Positions 42,362-59,753 are shown, numbered from the stretch's first letter. The stretch: DNA of 64,000 nucleotides from Candidatus Saccharimonadota bacterium (GCA_034521515.1 JAXHMH010000002.1:640444-704443), one strand, 5' to 3'. Translations and numbers: made by a program. Notes: generated by a model from the sequence alone, not told the origin.

Positions 42362-43069
42362 ATGATGGGACTAACAAAGCAGCAGTTAATTGGTCTTTTT
42401 GCGGGACTCATTATTGTAGTCGGCGGTGTGTTTGCATATATGTACTTCACCGGCGATGATGTAACCAATCAACAAAACCAAGAAGAACAAGCCACAACAG
42501 ATAATAATGACAGACAAACACCCGAGCCTGGCTTTAATCCGGTCGATACAGAAGAGGTCGCCTACATTGCAACGATTTCCGGTTCTGATGAGGACGGCGA
42601 GATTTCTGGCACTATCGAGTCTGACGGGCAGGGAAGTATAGTCTATAAGTTTACCGATAACGGTACTAGTTCAGAAATGTACGTCACGCCAGACGGTACC
42701 TACGCCTGCCAAGATGGCAGTGATTGCGTAAAGTTCAGCAACAATAATGAAGATTCAGCCAATAGTGCCAGCCCGTTTAACCCGGATAGGTTCAACTTTA
42801 ACGAAGAAGACTACAACGACTTCCGCGATATTGCTACTTACGAAGGTAGCTCACCTTGCAGCTCCGGAACATGCGATGTTTGGTCATACGTTGATGAAGA
42901 TACAAATACCGATACCACAACTTACATTGATAACAGTAGTAACCGGATTGTCCGCATCGAGAGCGATGAGGCTAACAGTAGCTTTGTGATCGAATATGAT
43001 TACGATGTATCTGTGACTATTACACCACCAGAAAATGCCCAAGATTTGTCCAATGTAAACGGTCTTTAG
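42362..43069 (+). CDS. Membrane-anchored acidic hypothetical protein
   Basis: 235 aa with one N-terminal TM helix and a D/E/N/S/T-rich ectodomain containing Cys pairs. Confidence 0.5.
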   Translation: MMGLTKQQLIGLFAGLIIVVGGVFAYMYFTGDDVTNQQNQEEQATTDNNDRQTPEPGFNPVDTEEVAYIATISGSDEDGEISGTIESDGQGSIVYKFTDNGTSSEMYVTPDGTYACQDGSDCVKFSNNNEDSANSASPFNPDRFNFNEEDYNDFRDIATYEGSSPCSSGTCDVWSYVDEDTNTDTTTYIDNSSNRIVRIESDEANSSFVIEYDYDVSVTITPPENAQDLSNVNGL

Positions 43070-43161
43070 TCCGCACCATTAGCTCCTGCACGTCATACAG
43101 AACCCATATAAAAAAGGTAGTCATATGAAAATATGCACGTATCTAAAATCACAATCCACGC

Positions 43162-43191
43162 CCCTGTTAGAGGACAGTCCTCTGGGTTCCC
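43162..43191 (-). repeat. Island repeat family, copy R1 (hairpin core AGAGGACAGTCCTCT with flanks)
   Basis: CCCTGTTAGAGGACAGTCCTCTGGGTTCCC. The upstream ~40 nt resemble the reverse complement of the B module of R4/R5. Confidence 0.8.
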
Positions 43192-43338
43192 GACAGATAA
43201 CTGACCTGCACTAACTTCTTCCCGTTTATCTCGCAGTCTACACTCCGTTCAATGGCAGGCAAAGTGGTGCAGTAATGATACTGTATATTTTATATATCTC
43301 AACTAGACAACATCCTGCTGCCAGTACATTTATCGTAA

Positions 43339-44679
43339 TCAAGCTTCGTGGTAATCGAATGACTTATACTGATCTATTTTTATTTCAACGGCATCGACAA
43401 GTCTGTTGTGCTCACTGATTAACTGGTTATAGTAGTCTACTTGAGCGTTATAACTGTCAAGAGCATAAAGATAGTTGTTGTACGTTTGACTCTTTCTAGG
43501 ATTATTTACGGTGTCGCAAGAATACCTGTAGGATGGGCTGTAATAACTATCGTAGTAGTAGGAATTATACGAGTAATCATAGCTATATCCGCAGTCTAGA
43601 GTGGTTGACGGTGTAGCGAGATATGTATTATAGGCACTTGCCTGATTGGCATCGAGGCGCATAAGTTTATCATATTGCTGATTAAGCGTAGCGGTGCTGC
43701 TTTCAAGACCATCGAACCGGTTTATAATTTCTTGCTCAAGGTTGCGAATTATTACAATGCGACGATACTCTTGCCCTTCATTAACGTCAACTATCATATT
43801 TGGCATCGAGATTGTTCCGGATGGGGTGTATTCGTAGTCTGAAGGATCATCTGATATATCTAGATCATTAATAGAGCTTATTGAAACAGCAGGCGTGCCG
43901 TTAGACTCATTTACACTGCTAGGTATTTCTCCCGGGGCAAAACCTGGGGCCGTCATCTCCATGTACGCATAGCTAGTTCCAAAATCCGTATATCCGTCTG
44001 GGCTTTTGATGCCTAGCGCCATGTGCTGTGCATCAGGAAACAGCATTATCCCAGTGCCATAGCCAAGCTCTTGTAGAAGAGCACTACCAAGATATGTTTT
44101 GCCTGTACAAATACCAGAGTTATTGTATATAGTCTCGTATGGGTACTGTGCTAACTCTCTATCTGTTATGAAAGCATCGCTTAGGACCACTTCAGCCTTT
44201 TGTTCATCGTAAGGTATGTTTTGAATGAAGCAAGTAGTGAGCTCGACCAACTGATCATCATTTAGTCCGTATTGATACCCTAAGTCTCTTATATCATCAG
44301 CCAGTTCAGCGATAAAAGTGTCGTTAGGGTGGCTTTCAGCCAGTCGATTGAAATGTGCGTTATCAAGACTGGATGATTTTGTTGAATTGTAATGATAATA
44401 CCTGTAGACGCTATCGTAGGTAGCTACATCTAACGTGATTTCATTATCTGCATAATTGCACTCAAGTGTAGTAATATTTTCTCCAAGATTCATTGGTGGA
44501 TACGCATTAAAAACATAATTGGCGTGGCCAGTAGTGAACCCTGCAAACATCAGCACTAAAAACAAGACACCACTACCATACACTAGCCTTCTGCCTTGAA
44601 AGATAGCAGCGATATTGCTGACGCCGATTGTTTTTTGGTTATTTAACTCAAAATCTTGAGTTTCATGAAGACGCTTCAC
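43339..44679 (-). CDS. Membrane-anchored hypothetical protein, possibly with a transglutaminase-like Cys-peptidase core
   Basis: 446 aa with an N-terminal TM helix. SGICTGKTYLGSALLQELGY...QHMALG loosely resembles a transglutaminase-like Cys/His core. There is a Tyr/Ser-rich low-complexity stretch and a C-terminal coiled coil. Confidence 0.35.
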   Translation of the reverse strand: MKRLHETQDFELNNQKTIGVSNIAAIFQGRRLVYGSGVLFLVLMFAGFTTGHANYVFNAYPPMNLGENITTLECNYADNEITLDVATYDSVYRYYHYNSTKSSSLDNAHFNRLAESHPNDTFIAELADDIRDLGYQYGLNDDQLVELTTCFIQNIPYDEQKAEVVLSDAFITDRELAQYPYETIYNNSGICTGKTYLGSALLQELGYGTGIMLFPDAQHMALGIKSPDGYTDFGTSYAYMEMTAPGFAPGEIPSSVNESNGTPAVSISSINDLDISDDPSDYEYTPSGTISMPNMIVDVNEGQEYRRIVIIRNLEQEIINRFDGLESSTATLNQQYDKLMRLDANQASAYNTYLATPSTTLDCGYSYDYSYNSYYYDSYYSPSYRYSCDTVNNPRKSQTYNNYLYALDSYNAQVDYYNQLISEHNRLVDAVEIKIDQYKSFDYHEA

Positions 44680-44704
44680 CTTATATATTATATAATCTCT
44701 ACGT

Positions 44705-45547
44705 TCAGTTTACAAATGTTTGCTTCACTCTCTGGCTTTTTATGAGATAAAACAGCCAAGCCACAGAAACTGCTAGTCCAGGTATAGACTCTGCGATACC
44801 TGGCGTAAAGTCACTTAACATGCCTAATCTAGAAAATACAATTATTCCCGCAACTATTTCAAAGAGCAACAGTAAAACCAAGAAACTTACAATAAATATT
44901 CCAAAAGCCCGAGCAGATTTCTTTTTTCTAAAAAACCAAAACCAATAAACAAAAAATAATTGCGCTATGATTATACCCCCAAGTGAAACCATTGCAACAT
45001 ATACAGCAATCGAAGGGAGGACATCTGTATTGCTGTCTAAAACCAACCCCATATTGGTTATGGAATAGTAGGCGTTAATGAAAGGGCTTACAATTACCAT
45101 AAGCCCAAAGAGTGCAAGCCAACCAGATATTGTCTTGGTATTGTTTATCTTTTTATGGTTGTTCGATTTCGAAGTTTCTTTAGTAGTTTCTCGTCCGAGA
45201 TAAGCATCAAGAATTTCATTATCGTCTAGACCGATTACCCCGTTTTGATACGCACTAATCATTTCTGAATCAAAATCATCATCACCTTTTAATGATTCGG
45301 CATCTCTTAAGAAGCCCCGTGCATCTTCAAATTTTTCTTTTGCTAAAAAAATCATTGCCTGGAGCTGATATAGTAGGTAACGATCAGACCCTATCTCATT
45401 GTTCTCCTGATATTTATCAGCGAGCTGATCAAGCCTCGACTGCATTTTTAATATTTCTGTTTTTGACAACTTGTCTTGCTGATAGGCAGCGTCAAGTGCT
45501 TCAATATATTTTTTAGTTTTGTGGAAATCTTCAAAACGTCGCTTCAT
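44705..45547 (-). CDS. Helical (TPR-like) N-domain fused to a 4-TM DUF2569-like domain
   Basis: 280 aa. The GWLALFGLMVIVSPF block is followed by 4 TM helices. A decayed paralog lies at 49581-50452. Confidence 0.5.
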   Translation of the reverse strand: MKRRFEDFHKTKKYIEALDAAYQQDKLSKTEILKMQSRLDQLADKYQENNEIGSDRYLLYQLQAMIFLAKEKFEDARGFLRDAESLKGDDDFDSEMISAYQNGVIGLDDNEILDAYLGRETTKETSKSNNHKKINNTKTISGWLALFGLMVIVSPFINAYYSITNMGLVLDSNTDVLPSIAVYVAMVSLGGIIIAQLFFVYWFWFFRKKKSARAFGIFIVSFLVLLLLFEIVAGIIVFSRLGMLSDFTPGIAESIPGLAVSVAWLFYLIKSQRVKQTFVN

Positions 45548-45748
45548 AAAAATCTCTTTGTATTTTGATTATATACGAAAACAAGCCATAAACTAATGCT
45601 GGAATACATGATTTGCCATAGAGTCACGTTTAATCTTGCATTTCGATTCGATGCGAAAAAAATATTTTATTTTATGTTATCTTCAGAGTCCTTTAAACTA
45701 CCCCTTCTGAACGCATGCTCACTCAATCCATTACTGTAATCTGAGATA

Positions 45749-45775
45749 GTGTTAGAGGACAGTCCTCTGGGTTCC
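45749..45775 (-). repeat. Island repeat family, copy R2 (hairpin core)
   Basis: GTGTTAGAGGACAGTCCTCTGGGTTCC followed by CTCTGGGTTC-type 10-mers. Confidence 0.8.
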
Positions 45776-46028
45776 TCTGGGTTCTCTGGATTCTCAAGTA
45801 AGCGACTTTGAGCAAGCTGGATGGCTTGAGTCTCGACTGCGACGTCAGCTAGCTTGTGAGCAAGGTAAGGCAAGCCTATGGAGTGACTTACTCTCTACTG
45901 CTTTTGGCCGCATTGATTGGCTTGAAGTTATTACGAGCAATAAGAGCTAGCTCGAGCGTCCTGAGCAAGACGTAAAACTGCTCAATACAGGAAATGTGCT
46001 AGAGCTATGCACGGGAGATTGGGAAGAG

Positions 46029-47042
46029 CTACAATTTGCTACTTCTGTTGAACGGGGAGCTTATGCTGGTAATTGGTGCTGTTCGCTTGAACTTCTTGAA
46101 ATGGTCTGTAATAGTTCTGTCTTCCAGGTTGCTGAATATCCATCGATCAGCAAAGTGATAGGTGAAGTAATTGATATAATTCACTGCATCCTGATTGTAT
46201 TGAAAAGTTTCCATCACCATATCTTCATTTACAAGCAGCAGGCATCTATACGGACTTATTGGAATTTGAAATATCGCATCAATATAGCCTACTCCTTGGA
46301 AGAACGCCGGTCGTTTAGCGCGCTGCTGCGCTGTTAGGTAGTGAGTCACAGGGTTATCGGAGGTTACGAATACTCCTGCGTCGTGCGTTTTACTAACGAG
46401 CACCGCCTTCTTCAGCGTGAAAAGTATTTCGTATAACGTTCTGCTCATATCTAGTGCTGCACCCATGAAATACTGATCCATCGGGTCAAACTTAATCTCT
46501 GCTTTGCCGTCTAAGAACGCTTTTCTAGAATTCTCAACCTTTTCGTAGTCGTATTTTTCACCGAATGCTTTCTTTGCATCCTTGTGGTACGACTTTTTGT
46601 GCGATGCGACAGCTTGCATATGCATTTTTGTTGATTGTCCATATGAGGTCGCCCACATTTTCCGCTCTTGAAGATTGCGCGTATGCTGAAAAGCTATGTA
46701 CGCGAGTAGATTGCCTTTCTGTTTTTCAGGCAAGTCAATAAAACCATCAGTCATATCATCAAGTAGGCGCATCATGTTTACACCTTCGGCATCTACATCG
46801 GCGAGCGCATCTTCTAGCGCTGAATCTTTTTGTCCGGTTTCTACGACGGTGTATGTATAAAAGTCTCTCTGTCCGGCAATATTATGGATATTCGTAATAT
46901 ATGGCTTCTTGCCAATCTCATAAGCAACAATTTGGTCCGGATTATTTTTGGTTGCAAACCGTTTTAGATAACCTTGTGGTACATAATGGTGTATCGCCCC
47001 TAATTTATCTTTGCTTGGTTGTCGTTGATCCTCTTTGTTCAT
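46029..47042 (-). CDS. DUF4238-like protein (candidate anti-phage effector family)
   Basis: 337 aa. The N-terminal HHYVPQGYLKRF matches the HY(V/I)PxxYLxxF start recalled for DUF4238. Its start overlaps the stop of the upstream gene by 4 nt. Confidence 0.55.
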   Translation of the reverse strand: MNKEDQRQPSKDKLGAIHHYVPQGYLKRFATKNNPDQIVAYEIGKKPYITNIHNIAGQRDFYTYTVVETGQKDSALEDALADVDAEGVNMMRLLDDMTDGFIDLPEKQKGNLLAYIAFQHTRNLQERKMWATSYGQSTKMHMQAVASHKKSYHKDAKKAFGEKYDYEKVENSRKAFLDGKAEIKFDPMDQYFMGAALDMSRTLYEILFTLKKAVLVSKTHDAGVFVTSDNPVTHYLTAQQRAKRPAFFQGVGYIDAIFQIPISPYRCLLLVNEDMVMETFQYNQDAVNYINYFTYHFADRWIFSNLEDRTITDHFKKFKRTAPITSISSPFNRSSKL

Positions 47043-47929
47043 ATATTTTTATCCTCTGGCTTGATTAAGTCAATCTCAGTACATTTAAGCAAGCTTACGA
47101 CATGCATGAGCGCAATCAGTGCATTCAGTTTAGAATACTGCATCGGAGATACACCGTGTGTCGAAGCATTGCGAGAGTATTTTTTAGGAATTTTATCACC
47201 GTTTTTTGGCCAATACTCTCCATAGCTAGCAGATATCGCGCCAACCACTAGAGCTATACCAACTGACTCCTCCTTCCAGTCTATGGGGTTCTTCTGGCTC
47301 GTGATACTTATACGCGATTGCTCATCAAATATTCTGTACAAAAGTGAATCGAGTAGATTAGTGCTCAGCGCCTGACTTGCTTCCCAATGACCACACTCGA
47401 ATGCCGTGGCAGATTTTTTTGCAAAAACTACGTACTCCGACAAAACGTATGAATCTATCGAATCAAGCACCGTGAAGCCATGCCTCACGATTGACTTATG
47501 ATTATCACTCAAAATTTTCCTACGATTGCCAGGAGATTCAGATAAAAATATCTTTTCTAGTATATCCCTGGGTGGCGTCCATGCTAAAGGGATACCTTCA
47601 GCGATAAGGCTATCTAAATTATCTGGCAAGGACAGATATTCACCATCTCTCCAGTTATCAGGATAACTAGTCGCGATAAGTTCAAGGGACGTCTTTACTA
47701 ATTTTGATACTTGTCCAATGTGTTGCTGTGTCATTTCTGATAACAGCTTTTGGATCTGCTCGGACTGGGTTCTTGGAAATATTTTTGAGTAGTCAATTTC
47801 AGGGATATGAGCGGTCACTCTAAGCGAGTTTTTTAATGTATCGCTGAAATTATTTTCACGCAAAGTGTTGGCAATACTTTTTTGTAGTTTCTCTAAATCA
47901 TTCTTAGCTTCGTTGTGCTCCCAGCTCAT
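47039..47929 (-). CDS. Hypothetical protein with a C-terminal HEPN-like Rx4H motif
   Basis: 296 aa. KKYSRNASTHGVSPMQYSKLNALIALMHV contains R-N-x3-H in a helical C-terminal region, as in HEPN RNases. It is translationally coupled to the DUF4238-like gene. Confidence 0.45.
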   Translation of the reverse strand: MSWEHNEAKNDLEKLQKSIANTLRENNFSDTLKNSLRVTAHIPEIDYSKIFPRTQSEQIQKLLSEMTQQHIGQVSKLVKTSLELIATSYPDNWRDGEYLSLPDNLDSLIAEGIPLAWTPPRDILEKIFLSESPGNRRKILSDNHKSIVRHGFTVLDSIDSYVLSEYVVFAKKSATAFECGHWEASQALSTNLLDSLLYRIFDEQSRISITSQKNPIDWKEESVGIALVVGAISASYGEYWPKNGDKIPKKYSRNASTHGVSPMQYSKLNALIALMHVVSLLKCTEIDLIKPEDKNI

Positions 47930-48330
47930 CTAATCTTATTGTATCAGGTAGGCGAGGTCTCAATTTGCATAGATCTTTTAACATAAAGACTCAGCTTAAG
48001 CGCTAGACAGCTTTTTTCTTTAGTGAAATTCGACATATAAATTTAATAAGAGTATTTTTAGCTCTTACAGCTCAAGCTAGATGGTGTTAGAAATATTAGA
48101 CAAAACAGAAACAGCTTCAAAAGTAAACTCTTAGTTATTGTGGTTGGTTTCCTTCTTTATGCCTTCTCAGTGTACGCATAGAACCTGCCCAGGTAAGGTC
48201 GTATTCACCCATAAGGCAATTGTTTAAGGGTTATTTTGGTGGCCTTAAGGGGAATCTCCACCTTGCCAAGCCAGAACCTATGCCGTGGTGATGTTGGTGC
48301 ATAAAAAATAACATCCCAAAGGAGGGAATC

Positions 48331-48510
48331 ATGCACACAACATCATTACTTACAAAACAAGAGTTAAAGAGCATACCAGAGCTCTACAAGTCAGAAGACC
48401 TGAAGGTCGATGACATGATCGTTCATGCCAAGTTCTTCACACCCTGGAGTAACTGGACATGGTACGTCATGGAATTTGACGGAGAAGATCGTTGCTACGG
48501 CTATGCCAAA
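48331..48510 (+). pseudogene. DUF2958-like gene fragment truncated by a repeat insertion
   Basis: IPELYKSEDLKVDDMIVHAKFFTPWSNWTWYVMEFDGEDRCYGYAKG matches the DUF2958 N-terminal block. From 48511 the frame runs into repeat R3. Confidence 0.6.
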
Positions 48511-48600
48511 GGGAACCCAGAGGACTGTCCTCTAACAGGGAGCAAAATGTTGAATTGTTGGTTTATACGAATAGCTGGTCTAGCATTCCCCCAGCTAGTT
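48511..48600 (+). repeat. Island repeat family, copy R3 (hairpin core plus a diverged B module)
   Basis: GGGAACCCAGAGGACTGTCCTCTAACAGGG, then AGCAAAATGTTGAATTGTTGGTTTATAC..GGTCTAGC..ATTCC, which is related to R4/R5. Confidence 0.75.
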
Positions 48601-48902
48601 TTTGACAGCGCTCTAGGTGTGCGTTGCCAAGTTGTCGTTTGTGACCTTCTGGTTCAGATAACGCCATAGTCTCTTCAAGACTTGCACGGAACTCATCGAG
48701 GTGTTGCAGGTCTAACTTGAAGTGTCATTCTTCATGGTGCAGTACAAAATTTTGCGTTGTACAGGCAACGTTCCATTCCCGCTGACTATCCGCTTGTGCG
48801 CCTGCCTCTAGGTCATCGGGTGTGATGAACAAATACTCACTTGTGATATCCATACAACTATTGTAATCCAATTACTGCAAAAGATGTAAATATACTTTTC
48901 TT

Positions 48903-49050
48903 TCTAGAGGTCCGTCCTCTAACAGGGGAGTAGAATGTGAAATTATTGATTTATGCTGTTTTGGAGCGTGGTCTAGGCGTATATTCCAAACACACTCTAG
49001 GCGACTTTCAATAGCTCAAACAGGTAATACATTTCGATCAGGCTGGCCGC
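48903..49050 (+). repeat. Island repeat family, copy R4 (hairpin, B module, start of C module)
   Basis: CTAGAGGTCCGTCCTCTAACAGGGGAGTAGAATGTGAAATTATTGATTTATGCTGTTTTGGAGCGTGGTCTAGGCG.. is near-identical to 51123-51240. Confidence 0.85.
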
Positions 49051-49188
49051 ACTATTGATTTTAGTAAAGCGTAGAAGAATGCCAGATGTTTGCAAAAAGT
49101 ACGCAAACGCACCAATCCACGCTACAAATAGCACGTAACCCATCGGGCCGTTATCGACGGCTACTTTTGTCTTATCTTTCTTTGCCAC
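48997..49188 (-). CDS. Small membrane protein; its 3' end runs into repeat R4
   Basis: 63 aa with one TM helix (GYVLFVAWIGAFAYFL). The C-terminal ~20 aa are encoded by repeat sequence. Confidence 0.35.
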   Translation of the reverse strand: MAKKDKTKVAVDNGPMGYVLFVAWIGAFAYFLQTSGILLRFTKINSAASLIEMYYLFELLKVA

Positions 49189-49209
49189 GATTTATCCTCC
49201 TATGCATCT

Positions 49210-49584
49210 CTAATATCTAGGAACTCTATAAATTCTACAATCGTAATCGCCTCTAATCCTATCTTCATAATGGTCGTAGGGATGGTTTGAGCTTCTGAAA
49301 TCATTCCACGCAACGCTTGGCATCTCGCAATAGTGATAGTAGGTACTGCCTAGCTTTATGACCATGTACTCTTGCGCCTTGTCATACCATGCGCCTTTTA
49401 CGGTTGAATCGGATTTATTGAGTGATTCAAAATTACTAGCAGAAATATTTACTTTGTCATCACGATATTTGATTTTGACATAATCAGAGCCTGATGAGAA
49501 AAAGAGTAAATATAAAATTACTCCACCGATTAATATTGCAAGTCCAATATGTATCCACGAATAGTCCTCTTTGTGTGTGGTCAT
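49210..49584 (-). CDS. Membrane-anchored KTSC-domain-like protein
   Basis: N-terminal TM helix. GAWYDKAQEYMVIKLGSTYYHYCEMPSVAWNDFRSSNHPYDHY resembles the KTSC domain pattern. Confidence 0.45.
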   Translation of the reverse strand: MTTHKEDYSWIHIGLAILIGGVILYLLFFSSGSDYVKIKYRDDKVNISASNFESLNKSDSTVKGAWYDKAQEYMVIKLGSTYYHYCEMPSVAWNDFRSSNHPYDHYEDRIRGDYDCRIYRVPRY

Positions 49585-50452
49585 TTTGTTAAAGTCGCCT
49601 TTACTCGTTTAGATACCAATAAATACGGTACCCATATAAGCGCATAAAAAATGCTGCGTCCTACATCCTTTGAATAATCGCTTATGTATTCAGTTGATAA
49701 CCCAGCACCAGTTAATACGTTGTAAACAATTGCATAGTCGGCTATTGCATAGATAGCACCGAATGATAATGCAGCAATAGCTACTGTTTTCGCTGCTTTT
49801 TTTCGACTGAATATCAGAATTGCTGAACCTATAAGCAAACCTATATATACAATTACTGCAACGTTTTCAAAAGCTGTTAGCGTTGAAAATGTATCGCCAA
49901 GCCCAGGTTGATATTCGTTGAGTGCACTTATGTCGGACCCAGATCAGGCCAAGGCCTTCTTGAAATGAAGCTGAAAAGGGACCAAAGCTGTCAAGATAAA
50001 GTATGTAATGTAAAAAATGCTAGCCAGCCGTCTAGTCCTACTAGTTTTTTTCGTTTTTTTGCCTTGGTTAGTTCTTTTTCCGACTTAGTACTTGCCTGCG
50101 GTTCTTTGGGTGTATCGTTAATTTGATTTATGAGTTGTTCTGCTCGCTTGTATGATTCACCTTTCATTTTTATTGCTTGCTTGATGAAAGCAAGTGCATC
50201 ATTGTCTTTATTTTGGAAGTAATAAAGTATTGCCTGTAGCTCATATAGCTTGTATCGCGCAGTTCCTAATTTCTCATAATATTGAAAGCGCTCGGCCAAT
50301 TTGTCTAACTTATTCTGAGAGTAATTATATAGTTCTTGTGGTGCATCACCGCTAGCAATGTCTTTTATGTTCGCCTCAATAACTTTAATCTCGTTAGTAT
50401 ATTCTTCACGAAGTTTTGAGTGCGGTAACTCCATTACTCTATATCTCTCCAT
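49581..50452 (-). pseudogene. Frameshifted paralog of the 44705-45547 gene
   Basis: ORFs 49991-50452 and 49581-49838, plus an out-of-frame middle piece (..SDISALNEYQPGLGDTFSTLTAFENVAVIVYIGLLIGSA..), together recapitulate the helical domain, the GWLAFF block and the TM/SKRVK tail of the intact paralog. Confidence 0.6.
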
Positions 50453-50970
50453 GTTCGTTTGGCCTTTTCTGGCTCTAAATCAATTACGTCAGCATCTTCT
50501 TCGGCTTTTTCGGAACTCTCAGCAAGTAGAGCACCAATGATTCGTGCACCATAGGTCAAGAATACTGCAAGTATCAGAGTCCAGAATATTTCCCAATGTC
50601 CGTTAAGTGCTGATGCTAACATGCCAATAGGCACAACGCCTACACCACCCAAGAAAAGACCAATAATAACGGCTATCCATCCCCATAAGGCAAGCGTAAC
50701 CGCAAGTCCAAATATCCAGGCGTTTAAACCGTAGACGTATGATGAGATAAAGATAATAATGCCTGCAACGCCTCGTGCTTTTGGAGCTATAGCGATCAAC
50801 AAGGTGATTATGTTAATTGTAAGTAATATTCCTGTTAGCCAGTTAACGAATGGTTGAATTGTGAATGCTACTCTTGCGCCCAATGTAAATAGTAGAACCG
50901 TAGCTACAATAATACCTATGAATATTACGATGCCAAGGAGCGAGCCTCCGATAGATTTCAGTGTTTCCAT
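50434..50970 (-). CDS. Membrane protein, function unknown
   Basis: 178 aa with about 5 TM helices and an acidic C-terminal tail. Confidence 0.5.
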   Translation of the reverse strand: METLKSIGGSLLGIVIFIGIIVATVLLFTLGARVAFTIQPFVNWLTGILLTINIITLLIAIAPKARGVAGIIIFISSYVYGLNAWIFGLAVTLALWGWIAVIIGLFLGGVGVVPIGMLASALNGHWEIFWTLILAVFLTYGARIIGALLAESSEKAEEDADVIDLEPEKAKRTWRDIE

Positions 50971-51122
50971 AATTCAGTCGCTTTACTTTACCTATAGACT
51001 AAACTAAAAAGTAAATTTTTTCTAGAACTCGAGTTGAGTTTACTATTCACTTCCGAAATAACGCGTAAATAGATACAACCAGAGCGACTACTTATTTATC
51101 GGTTCGTTTTCAAACTGGGCTC

Positions 51123-51317
51123 CTAGAGGTTCGTACTCTGACAGGGAGTAGAATGTGAAATTATTGATTCATGCTGTTTTGGAGTGTGGTCTAGGCGAAT
51201 ATTCCAAGTACAGTCTAGGCGACGTTCAACAGCTCAAGGTAGTACATAATAGTCCTTCGACAGGCTCAGGGCATTTTCCAGTCTCCGGCTGAAAGCCATG
51301 AGCCTGTCGAATGGCTG
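51123..51317 (+). repeat. Island repeat family, copy R5 (full hairpin + B + C modules)
   Basis: The A-like hairpin is CTAGAGGTTCGTACTCTGACAGGG. The B module is about 115 nt, as in R4. The C module (51238-51317) contains the long dyad TTCGACAGGCTCA..TGAGCCTGTCGAA. Confidence 0.85.
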
Positions 51318-51396
51318 AGCACGTACCCCATAGATGGAGCTGTTTATCCGCAGATTTATGTATAATCTATGATAAACTTGTCAAAAGGAAAAGTTT

Positions 51397-52149
51397 ATGA
51401 CAGAGATACCTACAGGTTCGCTATTACCTGGATTCAGCTCGGTAGATATTATAGATTATTCTGCGAGACGTCAGTTTGGCCTACCAGTTTCAGAAAATCT
51501 TCATAGAACATGGCATTCGGTTATGTCCGTAGTGACATATCTTGACGCCATCGAAGATGGAGACTACGGACAACAAGGTGAGTTGAACGTCGAGGATATA
51601 GTAGGCTTCATAAGTGGCGAGGCAGAAGAAGCTCCTCAATTACCTAACATTCATGCAAGTATCGCTCTTGAAGGTCTAGTCAAAAACTTTAAGCTTGTTG
51701 GGCTTGAAGATAGTCATCGCCAGGAATTCGTCGATAATTCAATTAGTCTTGCGTTGTTACATGCAGGCAATCCTGTTGACTCTTCCGTTAAGTCTCTAAC
51801 TCGCCATAGACTGGCGCAAGGTAGATTGTTTGGAAAGCTGTTTTCTGACGTTGTCCCAGATGTGTGCCGTACGGATAGATTTGAAGAATTTGAAGAATGG
51901 GTTCAGGTCGTTGGCGCAGTATCAGAAGTAGTTGACAGCATCTGGGATCTTTCAGAAGACCATCGCACAGGTAAAACTGCAGTGCAGCCAATATTGAAAA
52001 ATCGAGCACTGCTGGCATGGCACGCGACACCTGAATCCATGGTTGCTGCTAAGAACATGAGCCCAATGCTTGCAGGTAAGTTGGCGGTAAAAGCTGTACT
52101 TTTTGGGGTTAATCGTTCAGGGCGGTTCAACGCTCATCGTACAAAATAA
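51397..52149 (+). CDS. Possible squalene/phytoene-synthase-fold (class 1 isoprenoid synthase-like) protein
   Basis: 250 aa. YLDAIEDGD and IWDLSEDHRTGKTAVQP resemble the two Asp-rich motifs (xxDDxxD and DxxED..GRxYxP) of that family. This is a weak call from motif recall only. Confidence 0.35.
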   Translation: MTEIPTGSLLPGFSSVDIIDYSARRQFGLPVSENLHRTWHSVMSVVTYLDAIEDGDYGQQGELNVEDIVGFISGEAEEAPQLPNIHASIALEGLVKNFKLVGLEDSHRQEFVDNSISLALLHAGNPVDSSVKSLTRHRLAQGRLFGKLFSDVVPDVCRTDRFEEFEEWVQVVGAVSEVVDSIWDLSEDHRTGKTAVQPILKNRALLAWHATPESMVAAKNMSPMLAGKLAVKAVLFGVNRSGRFNAHRTK

Positions 52150-52157
52150 CTAAAACA

Positions 52158-52238
52158 GGTAGTACATAATAGTCCTTCGACACAGCTCAGGACATTCTCT
52201 AGTTTCCGGCTGAAAGCCATGAGCCTGTCGAATGGCTG
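52158..52238 (+). repeat. Island repeat family, copy R6 (C module only)
   Basis: GGTAGTACATAATAGTCCTTCGACACAGCTCAGGACATTCTCTAGTTTCCGGCTGAAAGCCATGAGCCTGTCGAATGGCTG is a direct repeat of 51238-51317. Confidence 0.85.
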
Positions 52239-52455
52239 GATAGACGGGACGGTGACCAAACTTTTTCTATTGATGACTTCGACCCTGAAACGGAAATTGA
52301 ACAGATTAAAAAACTCTTGAAGAATGAGCAGGATGATAATACTTGATGCTGTTATATCCATCATAAATAGCAAGATTTACTCATTTAAAACTGTATAACA
52401 AAAGTTCATTTGAGGGTAACTAATCGTTTGCAATAGCAGTAAACTCATGTAACAT

Positions 52456-52809
52456 ATGAATATGCGTTCATATGATGATGACGACAACGTGCTTAATTTA
52501 TTTAAGCTTTTAGCCGATAAAAATAGGTATAACATAATTCGGCACTTGAATATGCAAGAGGACTGCGTGTGCACGATGGCCGAATCGCTCGACATGGATC
52601 AGTCATTATTGTCGCACCATCTCAAAAAATTGAGTACTGAGGGCTTGGTGCAAACCAGGAAGGTCGGATCATGGGTGCATTACTCGCTAAATGTTGAGAC
52701 ATTTAAGCGGTTCGAGGAACAATTCAAGCGTGAGCTGAGTATTGAAAACTACAGCCCGTCACTTTGTGTCGACCATGAAGCATGCAAAAAATTAACGGAG
52801 GTAAAATAA
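52456..52809 (+). CDS. arsR: ArsR/SmtB-family metalloregulator
   Basis: LFKLLADKNRYNIIRHL..EDCVCTMAESLDMDQSLLSHHLKKLSTEGLV. This is the first gene of the ars-like operon. Confidence 0.8.
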   Translation: MNMRSYDDDDNVLNLFKLLADKNRYNIIRHLNMQEDCVCTMAESLDMDQSLLSHHLKKLSTEGLVQTRKVGSWVHYSLNVETFKRFEEQFKRELSIENYSPSLCVDHEACKKLTEVK

Positions 52810-52810
52810 T

Positions 52811-53113
52811 ATGTCAAACGTAATAATATACGATCCACCTATGTGTTGTTCGTCTGGTGTTTGTGGCCCAAATCCCGACGAGAGTCTAATGGATGTCGAA
52901 ACCATGCTGGCAGAGCTTAAAAAGTCTTCTTTTGAGGTTAATCGCTACTTAATAAATCAAAGCCCAGAAAAATTCAAAGAAGATCCAAGGATCATTAAAC
53001 TCATACAAGAAAAGCAACTAAAAGTTTTACCAATTACAGTCGTAGACGGTGAGATTATAAAAACAGGCAGTTATCCCACGATAGATGAAGTGCATGCCGC
53101 AAAGAAAGGTTAG
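52811..53113 (+). CDS. arsD: ArsD-like arsenical metallochaperone/repressor
   Basis: Contains MSNVIIYDPPMCCSSGVCGP, the ArsD N-terminal Cys cluster. 100 aa with a thioredoxin-like layout. Confidence 0.8.
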   Translation: MSNVIIYDPPMCCSSGVCGPNPDESLMDVETMLAELKKSSFEVNRYLINQSPEKFKEDPRIIKLIQEKQLKVLPITVVDGEIIKTGSYPTIDEVHAAKKG

Positions 53114-53118
53114 TTTAT

Positions 53119-54969
53119 ATGGCAACTAAGTTCTATTTTTTCTCAGGTAAAGGCGGCGTCGGCAAGACGACTACATCATCTGCTACCGCCCTACATTTAG
53201 CTGGGCAGGGTAAGAAAACTCTCATCGTCACAACAGACCCCGCGTCAAACTTGGCTGATGTATTTGATCAGAAGATTGGGCATGATATTACCCCAATACA
53301 AAGCGTTGATAATCTCTTTGCTATGGAGCTTGATCCAGATATCGCAACCAGTGAGTACAAAGAGAAAACTTTAGGCCCACTCCGGGACATATTGCCAGCA
53401 GAAAGCCTGACGGTTATCGAGGAGCAACTCAATTCTCCGTGTACGGCAGAAATGGCGTCGTTTGATAAATTTACGGATTTTCTGCAAGAAGGAACATTTG
53501 ATGAAGTTATATTTGATACCGCACCTACCGGCCACACGCTACGACTACTAGAACTGCCGGTTGAATGGAGCGGCGTAATTGAAACCGCTTCAAAAGAAGG
53601 CAGTAGCGGACAGACATGCATAGGTCCAGCAGCAGCCCTTGCTGAATCAAAAGAAAAATTCGATAGAGCCATAGAAGCGATGCGGGATAAAAACACGACA
53701 AGCTTTACGTTTGTGCTTCGGCCAGAATCAACCTCAATACAAGAAACCAAACGATCCATAAAAGAACTGCAGCGTCTTGGCATCGAGTCAATTGACCTTA
53801 TAGTCAACGGAGTCTTTCCTGCTGAAGCCGTAGATAACCCTCTTGCTATGAAGCGACAGCAAAAGCAAAAAGAGTTTCTTCGTATAATCATAAAGACATT
53901 CAAGACTGATCCAAAAATATTGTACTTACGTTCAAGCGAGATTGGTGGATTAACGAAATTAAAAGAAATTGGTGAAGATCTGCACCTTAGAACGCAGCGT
54001 TTGTCTGACTATGCTTTTTCATCAGGTAAAGCAAAAACTCTAAAGACCATATCTTCATATCCAAAAACTGACTCGAGCATAGTTAAACTACTTACCCCAG
54101 ATCCAGACTATCAAACACGGACTATTTTCTTTGCGGGTAAAGGAGGGGTAGGAAAAACAAGCGTGTCATCGGCAACTGGTCTGTGGCTAGCCGAAAAAGG
54201 CTATAAAACGCTCGTTCTCACCACTGACCCAGCCTCTCACCTTAAGGAGGTCTTCGGTCAGGAGATTCATCATCACCCCACTCCGCATAAAGATGTACCC
54301 AACCTCGACCTAGCACACATCGATGCCGAAAAAGCTACTGAAGAATACAAGGAAAAAATTCTTTCTCAGGCTCGAAAAAAATATGACGCCGAAAGATTGA
54401 GTGCTATAGAAGAAGAACTGGATTCACCCTGCACTGAAGAAATGGCTACATTCGAAAAGTTCATGGACTACATGAGCCAAAGCGAATACGACATTATCGT
54501 ATTCGACACCGCACCGACCGGTCACACACTGCGGTTGTTGAACCTACCAATTGCTTGGGATAAACAGCTCGAGATAAAAACGCTAAATCAAGAACAAGTG
54601 ACAGAAGTAGACAAAGCAACTAAAGAACGTTACGACAAAGTCATCGATAGGCTACGAGATCCACGCAAAACAACATTTAGTTTTGTGATGTATCCCGAAA
54701 CAACGCCAATCATCGAAGCACATCGAGCAGTACAAGAGCTTGAATCTGCAGGAATCACTACCACGCTCGTTGTTGCGAATTTAGTGATTAATGATTCGTA
54801 CGCAACAAACAATTTCTGGAAAGAGCGTCGTAGTATGCAACAAAAGCACCTTGATGATATGAAAAAGAAATTCAGTGGAACGATTGCCACCCTCGATATG
54901 ATGCCTGATGATTTAAACGGTATAAACAATCTAAGAGAAGCGGGATATTTACTATATGGAAAAGAATAA
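53119..54969 (+). CDS. arsA: ArsA-type (Get3-like) tandem ATPase
   Basis: Two homologous halves, each with GKGGVGKTT/S, TTDPAS.L and DTAPTGHTLRLL. Confidence 0.9.
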   Translation: MATKFYFFSGKGGVGKTTTSSATALHLAGQGKKTLIVTTDPASNLADVFDQKIGHDITPIQSVDNLFAMELDPDIATSEYKEKTLGPLRDILPAESLTVIEEQLNSPCTAEMASFDKFTDFLQEGTFDEVIFDTAPTGHTLRLLELPVEWSGVIETASKEGSSGQTCIGPAAALAESKEKFDRAIEAMRDKNTTSFTFVLRPESTSIQETKRSIKELQRLGIESIDLIVNGVFPAEAVDNPLAMKRQQKQKEFLRIIIKTFKTDPKILYLRSSEIGGLTKLKEIGEDLHLRTQRLSDYAFSSGKAKTLKTISSYPKTDSSIVKLLTPDPDYQTRTIFFAGKGGVGKTSVSSATGLWLAEKGYKTLVLTTDPASHLKEVFGQEIHHHPTPHKDVPNLDLAHIDAEKATEEYKEKILSQARKKYDAERLSAIEEELDSPCTEEMATFEKFMDYMSQSEYDIIVFDTAPTGHTLRLLNLPIAWDKQLEIKTLNQEQVTEVDKATKERYDKVIDRLRDPRKTTFSFVMYPETTPIIEAHRAVQELESAGITTTLVVANLVINDSYATNNFWKERRSMQQKHLDDMKKKFSGTIATLDMMPDDLNGINNLREAGYLLYGKE

Positions 54970-55738
54970 TTCGACACAGAAGGTATTGTTTGTCAGCCGC
55001 GATGATGCGGTAAGCGTAAAAGTCGCGCAAGCGATATTCAATACACTCGTTCAAAAATATGCACTAGAGTGGACTGCCGATGCAGCTGTATTGAATTTAG
55101 AATCTGTAGACCAGAACCATCCAATATCTGAGCCCTTGCAGGCGAAGGGATATAAGACGGAGGGTATACATACTAGAACTCTAAACCCGAGCGATTCTGA
55201 AAGATACCGTATTGTCATAACGCTTGGTCAGACGAGTACACCATCAACATACGTCGATGCCGACATCGAAGTATGGGATCGGCCAAATAAATCCAGCGGT
55301 AGCAATGTAGACGCCGAAGAAATAGTACGACAAATTGAGGCAAAGGTAGTGAAGCTGGTCAACAAACTACATGAATACATGGACCCTCGCCTAGCTAGTC
55401 AGCTACAGGGCTTTGTATCTACTGTTTTTGATTATGTGCCAGAAGTCGTCGAGTTCAAGAAAGCGAAGGACGATTTACATGCTCATCCTGAGTCGCTCGC
55501 ACTTTGGCAGAAAAAACAAGAGATTCAGGAGACAATGAAAACATTGCAAGATAGCGGGCTCCCAGTCGATGACCAGCAACAACAATTGTTGAGCGAAACG
55601 ATGGCGAAAATGCGCGATGATGCAAATATAATGCGCTATTTACGTGCTGAAACATTTGTAAAACGTGCTACAGGATACATCGGATATATATTAGAGCAAA
55701 AAATCGGTGTTGATTTTGCACCAAGGAAGGAATGTTAA
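54956..55738 (+). CDS. Fusion of a degenerate LMW-PTP/ArsC-like domain and a YlbF/YmcA-like domain
   Basis: The N-terminal KVLFVSRDDAVSVKVAQAIF aligns with VLFVCxGNxCRSxMAE, but the CX5R Cys and Arg are missing. The C-terminal half (..LALWQKKQEIQETMKTLQDSG..ANIMRYLRAE..) resembles YlbF-family helical proteins. Confidence 0.5.
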   Translation: MEKNNSTQKVLFVSRDDAVSVKVAQAIFNTLVQKYALEWTADAAVLNLESVDQNHPISEPLQAKGYKTEGIHTRTLNPSDSERYRIVITLGQTSTPSTYVDADIEVWDRPNKSSGSNVDAEEIVRQIEAKVVKLVNKLHEYMDPRLASQLQGFVSTVFDYVPEVVEFKKAKDDLHAHPESLALWQKKQEIQETMKTLQDSGLPVDDQQQQLLSETMAKMRDDANIMRYLRAETFVKRATGYIGYILEQKIGVDFAPRKEC

Positions 55739-55740
55739 CT

Positions 55741-56124
55741 ATGTCTAAAACGAAAGCAGTAAAAACCCCCAAGCAAGCAGCCCGTGAACTAGCTGATATC
55801 ATCAACGAAACCAAGGAGATGAAGTTATATAAAAAAGCTATGGAAGAATTACAGGCTGACAAAAAAGCCCAAGAACTCATTCGTCAGTTTCAGGAAACTC
55901 GCGAAACGGTTATTACGCTACAGCGTAGTGGCATAGATGCCGGAGAGTCCATGGATAAGCTCAATTCTCTTCAGGGTGAAATCGGGAAAGTTACAGCAAT
56001 ACAAGACTTGACCAAACACCAGGCCAACATACAGAAAATGACGCAGGATCTAGCAATAGAAATTAGCCAGAAAATAAACTTTGAATTTAGTGTCCCTCAA
56101 TCTGGTGGCGGAGGCTGTTGCTAA
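55741..56124 (+). CDS. YlbF/YmcA (UPF0342)-family protein with a C-terminal GGGGCC tail
   Basis: Contains ..YKKAMEELQADKKAQELIRQFQE....LQRSG...... and IQDLTKHQANIQKMTQDLAIEISQKI...VPQSGGGGCC. Its overall layout and Gly/Cys C-terminus resemble B. subtilis YlbF. AAGGAAGG lies upstream of ATG 55741. Confidence 0.55.
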   Translation: MSKTKAVKTPKQAARELADIINETKEMKLYKKAMEELQADKKAQELIRQFQETRETVITLQRSGIDAGESMDKLNSLQGEIGKVTAIQDLTKHQANIQKMTQDLAIEISQKINFEFSVPQSGGGGCC

Positions 56125-56187
56125 CAGTCGCTCGTCACGTCTCTTAATATAAGGCGTGATAACCAGGGTAAAACACTTATATCATTC

Positions 56188-56215
56188 TGGGAGAGAAAGG
56201 ATTCGAACTTTGCCC
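56188..56215 (-). other. tRNA 3'-end-like fragment (T-arm/acceptor remnant)
   Basis: TGGGAGAGAAAGGATTCGAACTTTGCCC has the TGG..GGATTCGAAC pattern of a minus-strand tRNA 3' end, but no matching 5' half exists. Confidence 0.4.
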
Positions 56216-56333
56216 AGAAGAGTTATTTTGAACTTATGAAGTAAATATTGTTTAGTTGTTAAAATAACCAAACCGAAACAACAAATGAAAATCTCAGAAA
56301 TGCAATTTGGCTGACCTTATGGGTCTAGAACAT

Positions 56334-56660
56334 CTACTTATTAGCTTCAGAATCTGCTACTTTATCAAGAGTGTAGACATCTACCTTTTCTACAACCTTT
56401 TTAACTTGAGTAAAAAACTGTTTAAACTCCGGGCTCTGGCGCCACTCGTCTACTACCTCTAGGCTTTGCCAATCACGGTACGACAGAAAATGGCTTAAAT
56501 TGGTTTTATCCCGTAACAATCTAGCCCTGCCAGCACTAGGTGACTCTGATTGATTGGCAAAATCTTGCCATAGTTTTATAAAGGAGTCTTCCTCTCCTGG
56601 CTTAATGTGCCAGCTGCCACACATAAATATATTAAATTCATTCACTATTAATCTCTCCAT
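56334..56660 (-). CDS. ABM/Dabb-fold (antibiotic biosynthesis monooxygenase-like) small protein
   Basis: 108 aa. Contains ..W.IKPGEEDSFIKLWQDF... and FLSYRDWQSLEVVDEWRQSPEFKQF. Confidence 0.5.
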   Translation of the reverse strand: MERLIVNEFNIFMCGSWHIKPGEEDSFIKLWQDFANQSESPSAGRARLLRDKTNLSHFLSYRDWQSLEVVDEWRQSPEFKQFFTQVKKVVEKVDVYTLDKVADSEANK

Positions 56661-56689
56661 CTGAAAGTTACTGATTACATTATAACATC

Positions 56690-56710
56690 TGGCTGGGATG
56701 GAGGGATTCG
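56690..56710 (-). other. tRNA-Gln-like 3'-end fragment (candidate att-site relic)
   Basis: TGGCTGGGATGGAGGGATTCG compared with the 3' end of the intact tRNA-Gln, TGGCTAGGGCGGAGGGATTCG (57448-57468). A shorter echo, TGGCTGGGGATG, lies at 56828-56839. Confidence 0.5.
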
Positions 56711-57034
56711 CTTTCGTCGATTAATCTCCGAAAGTCCCGGGGAGCAAAGACATTTCGCACCCGTTCGAATCCCGCGCAACCAAACAAAAAAGGTTTGTCA
56801 GCAAGCTAAAGCTTACAAACAAACCTTTTGGCTGGGGATGCAGGTCAGAAACATTTAAATATGTACATTTTATATTGTCTAACGGCCGTCGATAGGTCTG
56901 CCAACTTGCTTAATGCACAACAACTGAGTGCTCCAGAAGCAATTAATAAATTTCGGAAATACCAAAGTCCCAATATAGATTATCGACAAACACCAATATC
57001 TTTAACTTTTAGACTTCAATGGTTTGTTTTATAG

Positions 57035-57436
57035 CTATTCTGTTGTTTGTCCATCAAATTCTTCTTCACTGGCTTCAGCTGGTTCTAATTTGTCGAATTC
57101 AATGCCGTCTTTGTGGTGCGGTGGTGAGTATATGGTGTACAATTTTAGCTTTTCAGTGTCAGAAGTATTAATGACATTATGTCTAGCTCCAGCAGGTACT
57201 ATTACTGCGCTACCGTCCCGTACTGTGTGTTCATTATCGTCAATCACTACTTTACCTTGGCCTGTTTCTATTCTAAAGAATTGATCATTATTTTGATGTG
57301 TTTCTAAACCAATTTCTTGGTTTGGATTCAAACACATCAGTACAAGTTGGGAATATTTGCTCGTATAGAGTACTTTTCTATACTTATCATTTTCTCTAGT
57401 TAATTCCTCTATGTTTTGTGAATAGCCTTTCATCAA
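57035..57436 (-). CDS. Cupin-domain protein
   Basis: Contains ..LETHQNNDQFFRIETGQGKVVID.. and ..GSAVIVPAGARHNVINTS.., the two cupin motifs. 133 aa. Confidence 0.75.
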   Translation of the reverse strand: MMKGYSQNIEELTRENDKYRKVLYTSKYSQLVLMCLNPNQEIGLETHQNNDQFFRIETGQGKVVIDDNEHTVRDGSAVIVPAGARHNVINTSDTEKLKLYTIYSPPHHKDGIEFDKLEPAEASEEEFDGQTTE

Positions 57437-57447
57437 TGTCTCCTCTG

Positions 57448-57521
57448 TTACAATGCTTGGCTAGGGCGGAGGGATTCGAACCCCCGATCACGGGACCAGA
57501 ACCCGTTGCCTTACCACTTGG
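57448..57521 (-). tRNA. tRNA-Gln (anticodon CUG), CCA encoded
   Basis: Reverse-complement fold: TAGGGCG/CGCCCTA acceptor stem (U1:A72, G73), 3-bp D stem GCC/GGC, anticodon arm ACGGG-TTCTGGT-CCCGT, T-arm GGGGG-TTCGAAT-CCCTC. Confidence 0.85.
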
Positions 57522-57564
57522 CCACGCCCTACTGCTAAGAAAAGTATACCAATTTTGAGTGTAT

Positions 57565-57688
57565 GATTCGACTCACCTCCGGCGAGCCCGATCACGGGGT
57601 CCCTTCGACAAGCTCAGGATAAACACCACCCGTTGCCTGGACTTTATCCGCCTATGGCGGAACTTGGCTAATCCCCAATGAGGTGAGC
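57565..57688 (-). pseudogene. Degenerate tRNA-Gln-derived element carrying insertions
   Basis: Shares four ordered blocks with the adjacent tRNA-Gln: GCCAAGT, AGGCAACGGGT, CCCGTGATCGGG and TCGAATC. These are separated by inserted hairpin/repeat sequence and enclosed by CTCACCTC/GAGGTGAG pairing. Confidence 0.5.
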
Positions 57689-57697
57689 TTTAGCTCA

Positions 57698-57753
57698 TAG
57701 TACTCAGTACCTAGTACCTAGTACACAGTACACAGTAGACAGTACCTAGTACT
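57698..57753 (+). repeat. Tandem heptad array (8 units of YAGTACN), third locus
   Basis: TAGTACT CAGTACC TAGTACC TAGTACA CAGTACA CAGTAGA CAGTACC TAGTACT followed by TGGG. The orientation and the CTTGGG end match 34559-34655. Confidence 0.9.
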
Positions 57754-57820
57754 TGGGATGCTGCGTTTTCTGACGAGGTTATTTTAACAGATTAACGGTG
57801 CAGGGGCTAGGCGCGTAATG

Positions 57821-59029: not shown

Positions 59030-59091
59030 AGTTGATGTCAGGTGGTATACTTCTTGCGATTAATAGAAAAATAAAAACAGGAATAGACTAG

Positions 59092-59736: not shown

Positions 59737-59753
59737 ATAATACTCGACTAAGT

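Follow-up and report, generated by a model that had tools for sequence, protein, structure and literature searches.

The segment 43070-57457 of a 64-kb window (the whole stretch of 64,000 nucleotides analysed here, from a metagenome-assembled genome (MAG) of Candidatus Saccharibacteria) probably represents a genomic island at an insertion hotspot, the 3' end of a tRNA-Gln(CUG) gene, with its right-hand part forming an accretion array of integrase-less modules bounded by attachment (att) sites. The right-hand ~6 kb (51312-57457) would consist of tandem modules, namely a cupin gene, an antibiotic biosynthesis monooxygenase-like (ABM) gene, an ars-type block and a gene for a 250-aa protein, each delimited by a remnant of the tRNA-Gln 3' end (...CAGCCA). 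An earlier reading of this DNA (the sequence-only reading) had proposed a tRNA-targeted hotspot with accreted and eroded modules; the proposal is supported for the right-hand ~6 kb, and for the left-hand ~8 kb (43070-51311) it is plausible but unproven.

The kind of feature, a tRNA-adjacent island with tandem accretion, is well known, and the locus is a new member of it in a lineage of the Candidate Phyla Radiation (CPR), where mobile DNA is poorly described. Full-text literature searches returned no papers on tRNA-associated islands in Saccharibacteria or Patescibacteria. With its insertion site, junctions and cargo (metal resistance-type and candidate defence genes) all defined, the locus is a testable case of recent gene exchange among Saccharimonadales.

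An ars block exchanged between distant Saccharimonadales lineages

The closest homolog of the island ArsA (96% aa identity) was found in the Saccharimonadales MAG GCA_040904145.1, whose locus is designated here L166. Window positions 52233-56313 align with L166 9115-13195 without a gap over 4,081 bp at 92.2% identity, and its non-coding stretches reach 82-88%. The neighbouring oxidoreductase gene (window 40771-42120) shares 70% nucleotide and 74% aa identity with its L166 ortholog, and the two tRNA-Gln genes are 83% identical. At third codon positions, identity amounts to 0.84 in arsA and 0.42 (saturated) in the oxidoreductase gene. Thus, the common ancestor of the two ars blocks is far more recent than that of their surroundings, which demonstrates horizontal transfer: the block has recently been exchanged between distant Saccharimonadales lineages. 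Most of the arsA differences (100 of 123) fall at third codon positions, indicating purifying selection on arsA and a functional block.

In both genomes, the ars block is situated in the interval from the oxidoreductase gene to the 3' end of tRNA-Gln(CUG), whose other genes are unrelated (a lipase, DsbA and a CsoR/P-type ATPase copper module in L166). The edges of the block are sharp, with TGGCTG[GA] at both ends in both genomes, and the L166 counterpart of the left-edge junction (J2) matches the 3' end of that genome's own tRNA-Gln at 13 of 16 nt.

With strong Pfam scores for ArsR, ArsD and ArsA, the block contains arsR, arsD and a two-domain arsA in the canonical order of arsRDABC-type arsenic resistance operons such as that of plasmid R773. 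It differs from them in having a fusion of a weakly matched LMWPc domain with YlbF, followed by a second YlbF protein, at the position of ArsC, and no ArsB or Acr3 permease was found in the block (window 52456-56124, L166 9338-13006) or among the flanking genes scanned. It may not encode a classical arsenite pump. ArsA relatives with 58-64% identity are common in Patescibacteria.

These comparisons bear on whether the segment is an island at all. Several of its gene families are widespread in Saccharibacteria, the available relatives show poor synteny throughout, and the genes at 36-43 kb, taken for housekeeping genes in the sequence-only reading, turned out to be niche genes as well. Such observations would suit a native, fast-evolving region decaying under relaxed selection, or a mis-assembled or chimeric MAG. 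However, the ars block matches a distant genome far more closely than does the neighbouring oxidoreductase ortholog, purifying selection acts on arsA, and both borders are reproduced by an independent assembly. The only near-identical contigs, recovered through exact-protein look-ups, belong to the Logan assembly of run SRR26473340 and contain this island too, colinear with the window, one (L163) spanning 42777-46014 at 100% identity and another (L081) spanning 54492-61642; their mismatches are few and clustered at contig ends, which suggests the same population. The ars comparison and the independent assembly effectively exclude both versions of this explanation, which we regard as extremely improbable.

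Junctions derived from the tRNA-Gln 3' end

The intact tRNA-Gln(CUG) gene was located by ARAGORN at 57458-57531 on the minus strand, a 10-nt offset from the 57448-57521 given in the sequence-only reading. Its 3' end at 57458 faces the island, which directly adjoins it. Read as its reverse complement, the hexamer TGGCTG is the CAGCCA that ends the tRNA, and the non-coding plus-strand TGGCTG sites of the island are exactly the module junctions (J1 to J5, starting at 51312, 52233, 56308, 56690 and 56829), which separate the cupin, ABM, ars and 51397-52149 modules. No TGGCT[GA] is present on the plus strand between 42000 and 51311.

Candidate 3' ends were scored with a position-weight matrix built from eight Saccharibacteria tRNA-Gln ends, for which fewer than 0.1 matches are expected at 14 bits or above. 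By this measure J4 is highly significant. Its acceptor sequence AUCCC[C]A is typical of other Saccharibacteria, and its difference from the CGCCCUA of the resident tRNA points to a foreign origin. Weaker tRNA-like pieces lie at 56829-56850 (minus), 56765-56786 (plus) and around 56199 (minus), and the 10-mer GTTCGAATCC occurs three times in the window, each time within 1.3 kb of the tRNA. Of the tRNA 3'-end-like fragments claimed from the sequence alone, J4 thus stands far above chance and the others are individually weak; nor do all of them share the orientation of the tRNA, as had been stated, the piece at 56765-56786 being on the plus strand. A supposed tRNA-Ala fragment at 4300 was dismissed as a chance 9-mer match.

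Several of the junctions also form a family that recurs in other genomes. The pattern TCTAGACC or TCTGACC, about 8 nt and CAGCCA matched eight times in 2.2 Mb against 1.6 expected, and six of the eight matches lie downstream of tRNA-Gln in the tRNA orientation, in the window, L166 and a third locus, L013. The J3-type arrangement TCTAGACC-N8-CAGCCA has two copies in L166 and also occurs in L013, downstream of tRNA-Gln, and the J5-type TCTGACC-N-CAGCCA occurs in L166. Read in the tRNA orientation, hairpins follow several of the junctions: repeat B1 follows J1, repeat B2 follows J2, and a terminator-like hairpin (56785-56825) follows J5; the one after J3 was seen by eye only. A 3' end followed by a hairpin is what would be expected of an element-borne "3' end plus terminator" left behind by the next insertion.

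Same-strand copies of the 3' end were also identified downstream of tRNA-Gln in four other Saccharibacteria loci, L013, L004 and L002 among them. The copy in L013 is identical at 16 of 16 nt and lies 721 nt away with a single 209-aa gene in between; those in L004 and L002 lie 108 and 154 nt from the tRNA, respectively. The cargo after tRNA-Gln differs in all seven loci compared (the window, L002, L004, L013, L082, L097 and L166) and includes glyoxalase and Vgb lyase genes in L082, Fic in L097, RelA/SpoT and LPG synthase in L004, and the copper and ars modules in L166. Apart from the L166 ars block, no island genes were found downstream of tRNA-Gln in other relatives.

The 82-nt element that ends in J4 is conserved between genera and marks the distal side of the insertion site. 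Its L004 copy sits directly after tRNA-Gln and its terminator, and the two copies, each with two hairpins, differ by compensatory changes (CUUUCG/CGAAAG versus CUUUUG/CAAAAG). In locus L165, a tRNA-Gln 3' end and a partial copy of the element (~1755-1825) bracket 1.7 kb that contains a 64%-identical homolog of the 250-aa protein gene. Only three relatives of this protein were present in the collection searched, and the two that are not identical to it lie in other genomic contexts.

Composition and gene density

The island differs from its flanks in composition, as had been guessed by eye from its apparent AT-richness. Its GC content is 0.4095 versus 0.4487 in the remaining window, the GC minimum among sliding 14.4-kb intervals of the window begins at 43001, and 1-kb intervals inside and outside differ significantly (Mann-Whitney p = 2.6e-6). 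Tetranucleotide distances to the flanks are 0.20-0.26 within the island and 0.13-0.18 elsewhere. Coding density is 0.78 versus 0.89 outside, and 8 of 17 intergenic gaps exceed 200 nt, compared with 7 of 54 outside. The unusually long non-coding gaps noted previously are thus real (269, 481, 401, 540, 426, 306, 209 and 374 nt), and the anomaly in composition and gene density matches the proposed borders. The CPR host considered in the sequence-only reading was likewise confirmed, since the top MgsA relatives are all Saccharibacteria.

Proposed accretion of modules and its alternatives

We propose that elements repeatedly inserted at the tRNA 3' end, each bringing its own 3'-end copy and terminator and pushing earlier arrivals outward. 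The integrase and other mobility genes would have been lost or would act in trans from elsewhere, and the remaining att-bounded modules would resemble cis-mobilizable elements (CIMEs) still moving between Saccharimonadales lineages. Tandem accretion arrays and CIMEs have been described for ICESt1/ICESt3 of Streptococcus thermophilus, whose attachment site is in fda. The likeness lies in integrase-less att-bounded modules stacked at one site and, here, in an ars block that has moved between genomes; the differences are that the site here is a tRNA 3' end, that no partner element is known to supply a recombinase, and that mobilization in trans is presumed.

Islands associated with tRNA genes include pathogenicity islands and the Mesorhizobium symbiosis island at tRNA-Phe. 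With these the segment shares its position at a tRNA 3' end, direct copies of that end, deviant composition, mosaic and decayed content and accessory cargo of metal resistance, candidate defence and detoxification-type genes. A location on the 3' side of a tRNA, a deviant composition and the horizontal origin of the ars block are thus all present; an integrase is not. The segment also differs from such islands in that no mobility gene was found in it (nor an integrase in six related loci), in the small size of its modules (0.4-4 kb) and in its reduced CPR host.

Several observations weigh against the accretion model. No integrase, excisionase, transposase or relaxase, or recognisable fragment of one, was detected by Pfam, PADLOC and PHROGs searches of the open reading frames (ORFs) or by a six-frame Pfam scan of the gaps, in agreement with the sequence-only reading, which had recognised no integrase, transposase or relaxase. 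As no recombinase turned up, we only infer the mechanism, including the origin of the junctions by site-specific recombination and the order of insertion. J1, J2, J3 and J5 are individually short or weak matches, and neither a tRNA-derived junction nor a direct repeat occurs in the left 8 kb (43070-51311) or at the left border. All genomes used for comparison are distant relatives (60-78% identity in MgsA) with generally poor synteny near the locus, and MgsA-based scans of genome and metagenome contigs, which reached relatives of up to 78% aa identity, revealed no strain-level empty site. Finally, the tRNA gene has partial copies to either side of it, an arrangement not predicted by classical 3'-end integration.

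The last point is also among those that favour the main competing explanation, a hotspot without a recombinase. DNA taken up by the cell would be joined by homologous or homology-facilitated illegitimate recombination at tRNA-Gln anchors (the tRNA gene, its partial copies, the 82-nt element and microhomologies such as CAGCCA), and the tRNA fragments would be by-products and not att sites. Consistent with this, searches of the seven tRNA-Gln loci detected no integrase (six were scanned with Pfam, among them L097 for three ORFs only, and L013 was inspected by eye), and the block edges share only 6-7 identical nt, the size of a microhomology. L166 further carries a direct repeat of ~43 nt ("flank + TGGCTGG"), with one copy where the ars block begins on the left (9079-9121) and the other just downstream of tRNA-Gln (18495-18537). 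However, the ars block has different flanks in the two genomes, so simple double-crossover replacement is insufficient, and the recurrence of one junction family, always in the tRNA orientation and across genomes, appears too orderly for illegitimate joining. We consider a recombinase-free hotspot a tentative possibility and rather unlikely, and favour accretion of att-bounded modules.

Comparison with known classes of mobile DNA gave no closer match. Pfam scans found no domains of integrative and conjugative or mobilizable elements (integrase, relaxase, oriT or a conjugation module), with a weak DUF2958-like fragment as the sole hint. Phage structural, replication and packaging genes were likewise not found, although no phage collection was searched, PHROGs giving a match of unknown function for the DUF4238 protein and a marginal one for the KTSC protein. 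A plasmid collection contained no DNA match to the island beyond short arsA motifs. As for direct repeats derived from the tRNA, internal copies exist (J4 strong, J1-J3 and J5 weaker), and none was found at the far-left border. The locus raises the question of which recombinase, or which process linked to competence, mobilizes modules without integrases in genomes of ~0.7-0.8 Mb. The features that could prove new are the consistent absence of an integrase and the covarying elements around tRNA-Gln.

Repeats and structured elements

The six copies of a single structured repeat described in the sequence-only reading resolved into two families, A (five copies) and B (two full copies and a 17-nt partial one), which within the window are both restricted to the island. 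The family A core is GGGAACCCAGAGGACTGTCCTCTAACAGGG, with two copies on the minus and three on the plus strand, and a 30-nt part of A3 is a perfect inverted repeat of 43162-43191 in A1. Family A was rejected as a structured RNA because its copies show no compensatory changes. Family B is a ~80-nt hairpin; its two copies bracket the 250-aa protein gene, and its 17-nt core recurs beside the tRNA. A pseudo-tRNA origin of family B was rejected, since only this core is shared and extended alignments did not score above shuffles. Neither family had a match in 2.1 Mb of related loci, and exact-pattern scans of viral contigs did not find their cores. In Rfam, the repeats and tRNA-like elements had no match near the gathering score, and only the tRNA itself was matched.

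Upstream of tRNA-Gln, the window contains the degenerate 5' three-quarters of a second, "typical"-type tRNA-Gln gene (57551-57677) with insertions and a cut in the T loop. Its local alignment score is 62.9 versus 38.6 +/- 4 for shuffles, and its first 16 nt are the same as in the L002 tRNA-Gln. It carries the hairpin motif GGGCTCGCCGGAGGTGAGTCGAATC at 57565-57589, which is also present upstream of tRNA-Gln in L002 and L092. This partial gene and J5 look like the two halves of an older tRNA-Gln, between which the resident tRNA and the cupin gene would now lie. The sequence upstream of the tRNA was also considered as a known RNA and rejected (fold z-score only -1.1, no Rfam match).

Similar partial tRNA-Gln copies in L002, L092 and L013 carry a ~100-nt three-hairpin element in the D loop or T arm. 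The element (~95-120 nt) has the form GGGG-UGAG-P1-CGCAAGG-P2-CGGG-P3-UCGAAUCC and is also found next to other tRNAs. In an alignment of six sequences, compensatory double changes affect 13 of 28 base pairs. Of the cells, 90% are paired, a share that drops to 34-43% once the partner column is slid, and the observed value was never reached in 500 shuffles. A covariance model (R1) found further copies outside the set from which it was built, and Rfam contained no match to the element. It could represent a new RNA or recombination-site family; it could also be a new tRNA-targeting mobile insertion or a family of tRNA-derived small RNAs. L092 2300-3212 contains three tandem copies of the tRNA-Gln promoter region (TGGGTTATAATATTTCTTGTC), each followed by a tRNA-Gln-derived unit of which only the last is intact, suggesting that transcribed units derived from the tRNA form an array upstream of tRNA-Gln.

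Small modules that often hold one gene (cupin, ABM and the 250-aa protein gene, and the 209-aa gene in L013), long hairpins at junctions, and the three-hairpin and 82-nt elements that keep their structure through compensatory changes also invite comparison with a cassette-capture platform. In such an integron-like or integrase-less site cluster, the hairpin repeats would act as folded single-strand sites at which a recombinase supplied in trans inserts cassettes. Integron arrays and clusters of attC sites lacking integrases (CALINs) likewise have small, often single-gene cassettes between hairpin sites, the latter with no integrase nearby. However, the sites here are tRNA-derived, and family B was rejected as attC: it lacks the cores RYYYAAC ... 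GTTRRRY, with GAC/GTC in place of the required AAC/GTT triplets. One arm of B2, the left, has an indel and mismatches without compensation, genes lie in both orientations, and neither attI nor an IntI-like gene was found. A cassette platform of this kind appears very improbable. We also consider, as a long shot of somewhat greater weight, a new tRNA-Gln-anchored gene-capture system of Saccharibacteria, in which modules would be exchanged at 3'-end copies by a recombinase that is never co-encoded, perhaps on folded single-stranded DNA acquired by competence and guided by the 82-nt and three-hairpin elements.

Left-hand genes and feature coordinates

The left-hand ~8 kb could be an older or otherwise acquired accessory region with a candidate defence pair, membrane proteins, pseudogenes and island-only repeats. 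The 296-aa and DUF4238 proteins are a candidate anti-phage pair. DUF4238 homologs are frequent in Saccharibacteria (45-82% identity among the top 46 full-length matches), but their upstream partners there are unrelated, and family A repeats were not found at those loci; these homologs thus do not help to delimit the left-hand modules. Near its C terminus, the 296-aa protein carries SRNASTHG, an R-x4-H motif that recalls HEPN nucleases; its single-sequence AlphaFold model had a pLDDT of 35, too low to be used. Sequence searches of solved structures gave no match for the 296-aa or the 250-aa protein.

At least three decayed genes had been claimed for the island. The DUF2569 paralog at 49581-50452 is indeed split over two frames, with residues 36-152 matching in one and 184-278 in another (26-29% identity by tblastn), but the DUF2958 assignment is weak, falling below the Pfam cut-off; the small ORF with an internal TGA is visible in the sequence and has no homology support. 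The coordinates of all features are given in Table 1.

Table 1. Features of the proposed island, its tRNA-Gln border and related elements in other loci (positions refer to the window unless a locus is named).
Feature	Position	Strand	Basis or remark
Low-GC, gene-poor accessory region (proposed island)	43070..57457	.	GC, tetranucleotide distance, coding density
Repeat A1, left island edge	43144-43191	-	repeat comparison, nhmmer
Transglutaminase-like (DUF553) gene	43339-44679	-	Pfam; GC 0.41
DUF2569 membrane-protein gene	44705-45547	-	Pfam; GC 0.37
Repeat A2 (short)	45747-45775	-	26/26 nt identical to A1/A3 core
DUF4238 gene	46029-47042	-	Pfam DUF4238 5.9e-33; PADLOC DUF4238-Pers 1.3e-17
Uncharacterised 296-aa protein gene	47039-47929	-	4-nt overlap with DUF4238 gene, two-gene operon
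DUF2958-like N-terminal fragment	48331-48510	+	weak: Pfam E = 0.019, 15.8 bits, profile positions 4-55/111
Repeat A3	48511-48566	+	truncates DUF2958-like ORF
ORF broken by in-frame TGA	~48560-48860	-	visible in sequence; no homology support
Repeat A4 (long form), then partial B left arm	48904-49032	+	repeat comparison, nhmmer
KTSC-domain protein gene	49210-49584	-	Pfam/PADLOC/PHROGs scans
Frameshifted DUF2569 paralog	49581-50452	-	tblastn
Membrane-protein gene	50434-50970	-	ORF scans
Repeat A5 (long form)	51123-51253	+	88% identical to A4 over 129 nt; nhmmer E = 1.5e-23
Repeat B1 (hairpin), ends in J1	51237-51317	+	RNA fold z-score -5.8
J1 (TGGCTG), leftmost junction of its type	51312-51317		B1 end; non-coding TGGCTG site
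250-aa protein gene, bracketed by B1 and B2	51397-52149	+	no Pfam/PADLOC/PHROG match
Repeat B2 (long hairpin), adjoins J2	52157-52238	+	93% identical to B1
J2 CCCGUCUAUCCAGCCA, ars block left edge	52233-52248	-	L166 homology begins at TGGCTGG
ars-type block	52233-56313	+	Pfam; 4,081 bp shared with L166 9115-13195
arsR	52456-52809	+	Pfam
arsD	52811-53113	+	Pfam
arsA, two-domain	53119-54969	+	Pfam
LMWPc (weak) and YlbF fusion	54956-55738	+	Pfam
YlbF	55732-56124	+	Pfam
J3 UCUAGACCCAUAAGGUCAGCCA, ars block right edge	56308-56329	-	L166 homology stops at TGGCTG
ABM gene	56334-56660	-	Pfam ABM 1.7e-10
J4 GCGAAUCCCUCCAUCCCAGCCA, copy of "typical" tRNA-Gln 3' end	56690-56711	-	18/21 nt, 27.1 bits
82-nt conserved element ending in J4	56690-56772	-	84% identical to L004 11501-11581
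J5 UUCUGACCUGCAUCCCCAGCCA, tRNA-Gln 3'-end-like	56829-56850	-	11.3 bits, weak alone
Cupin gene, module nearest the tRNA	57035-57436	-	Pfam Cupin_2 6.6e-17; GC 0.36
Intact tRNA-Gln(CUG), acceptor stem UAGGGCG/CGCCCUA	57458-57531	-	ARAGORN; Rfam tRNA 61.8 bits
Three-hairpin remnant	57550-57673		covariance model R1, weak, 15.6 bits
Degenerate 5' three-quarters of second, "typical"-type tRNA-Gln (UGGGGAUUAGCCAAGU...)	57551-57677	-	alignment to tRNA
Three-hairpin element copies	L092 2441-2559, 2826-2944, 3126-3212; L002 16416-16531		model R1 family
Three-hairpin element copies	L013 12609-12726, 14985-15146; L089 1-110, 312-419; L165 1-41		model R1 family

Further observations in the window

A Cu/Zn superoxide dismutase gene is the sole gene shared downstream of tRNA-Gln by the window (35450-35971) and L004 (20616-21131; 80% aa identity), at distances of 21.5 and 9.2 kb from the tRNA, respectively. 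The variable interval could therefore reach further left than 43070.

A 7-nt unit (AGTACNY) forms two similar tandem arrays (~7 copies, 82% alike), one at 57691-57746, upstream of the tRNA-Gln region, and the other at 34603-34647, upstream of a cupredoxin gene (34003-34599). A ~40-nt palindrome, CTTTCACATTTACGACGGCCGTCGTAAATGTGAAAG, is present in two copies ~520 nt apart, a perfect one at 16436-16475 and an imperfect, ~90% similar one at 16957-16995, which surround the ORF 16474-17043.

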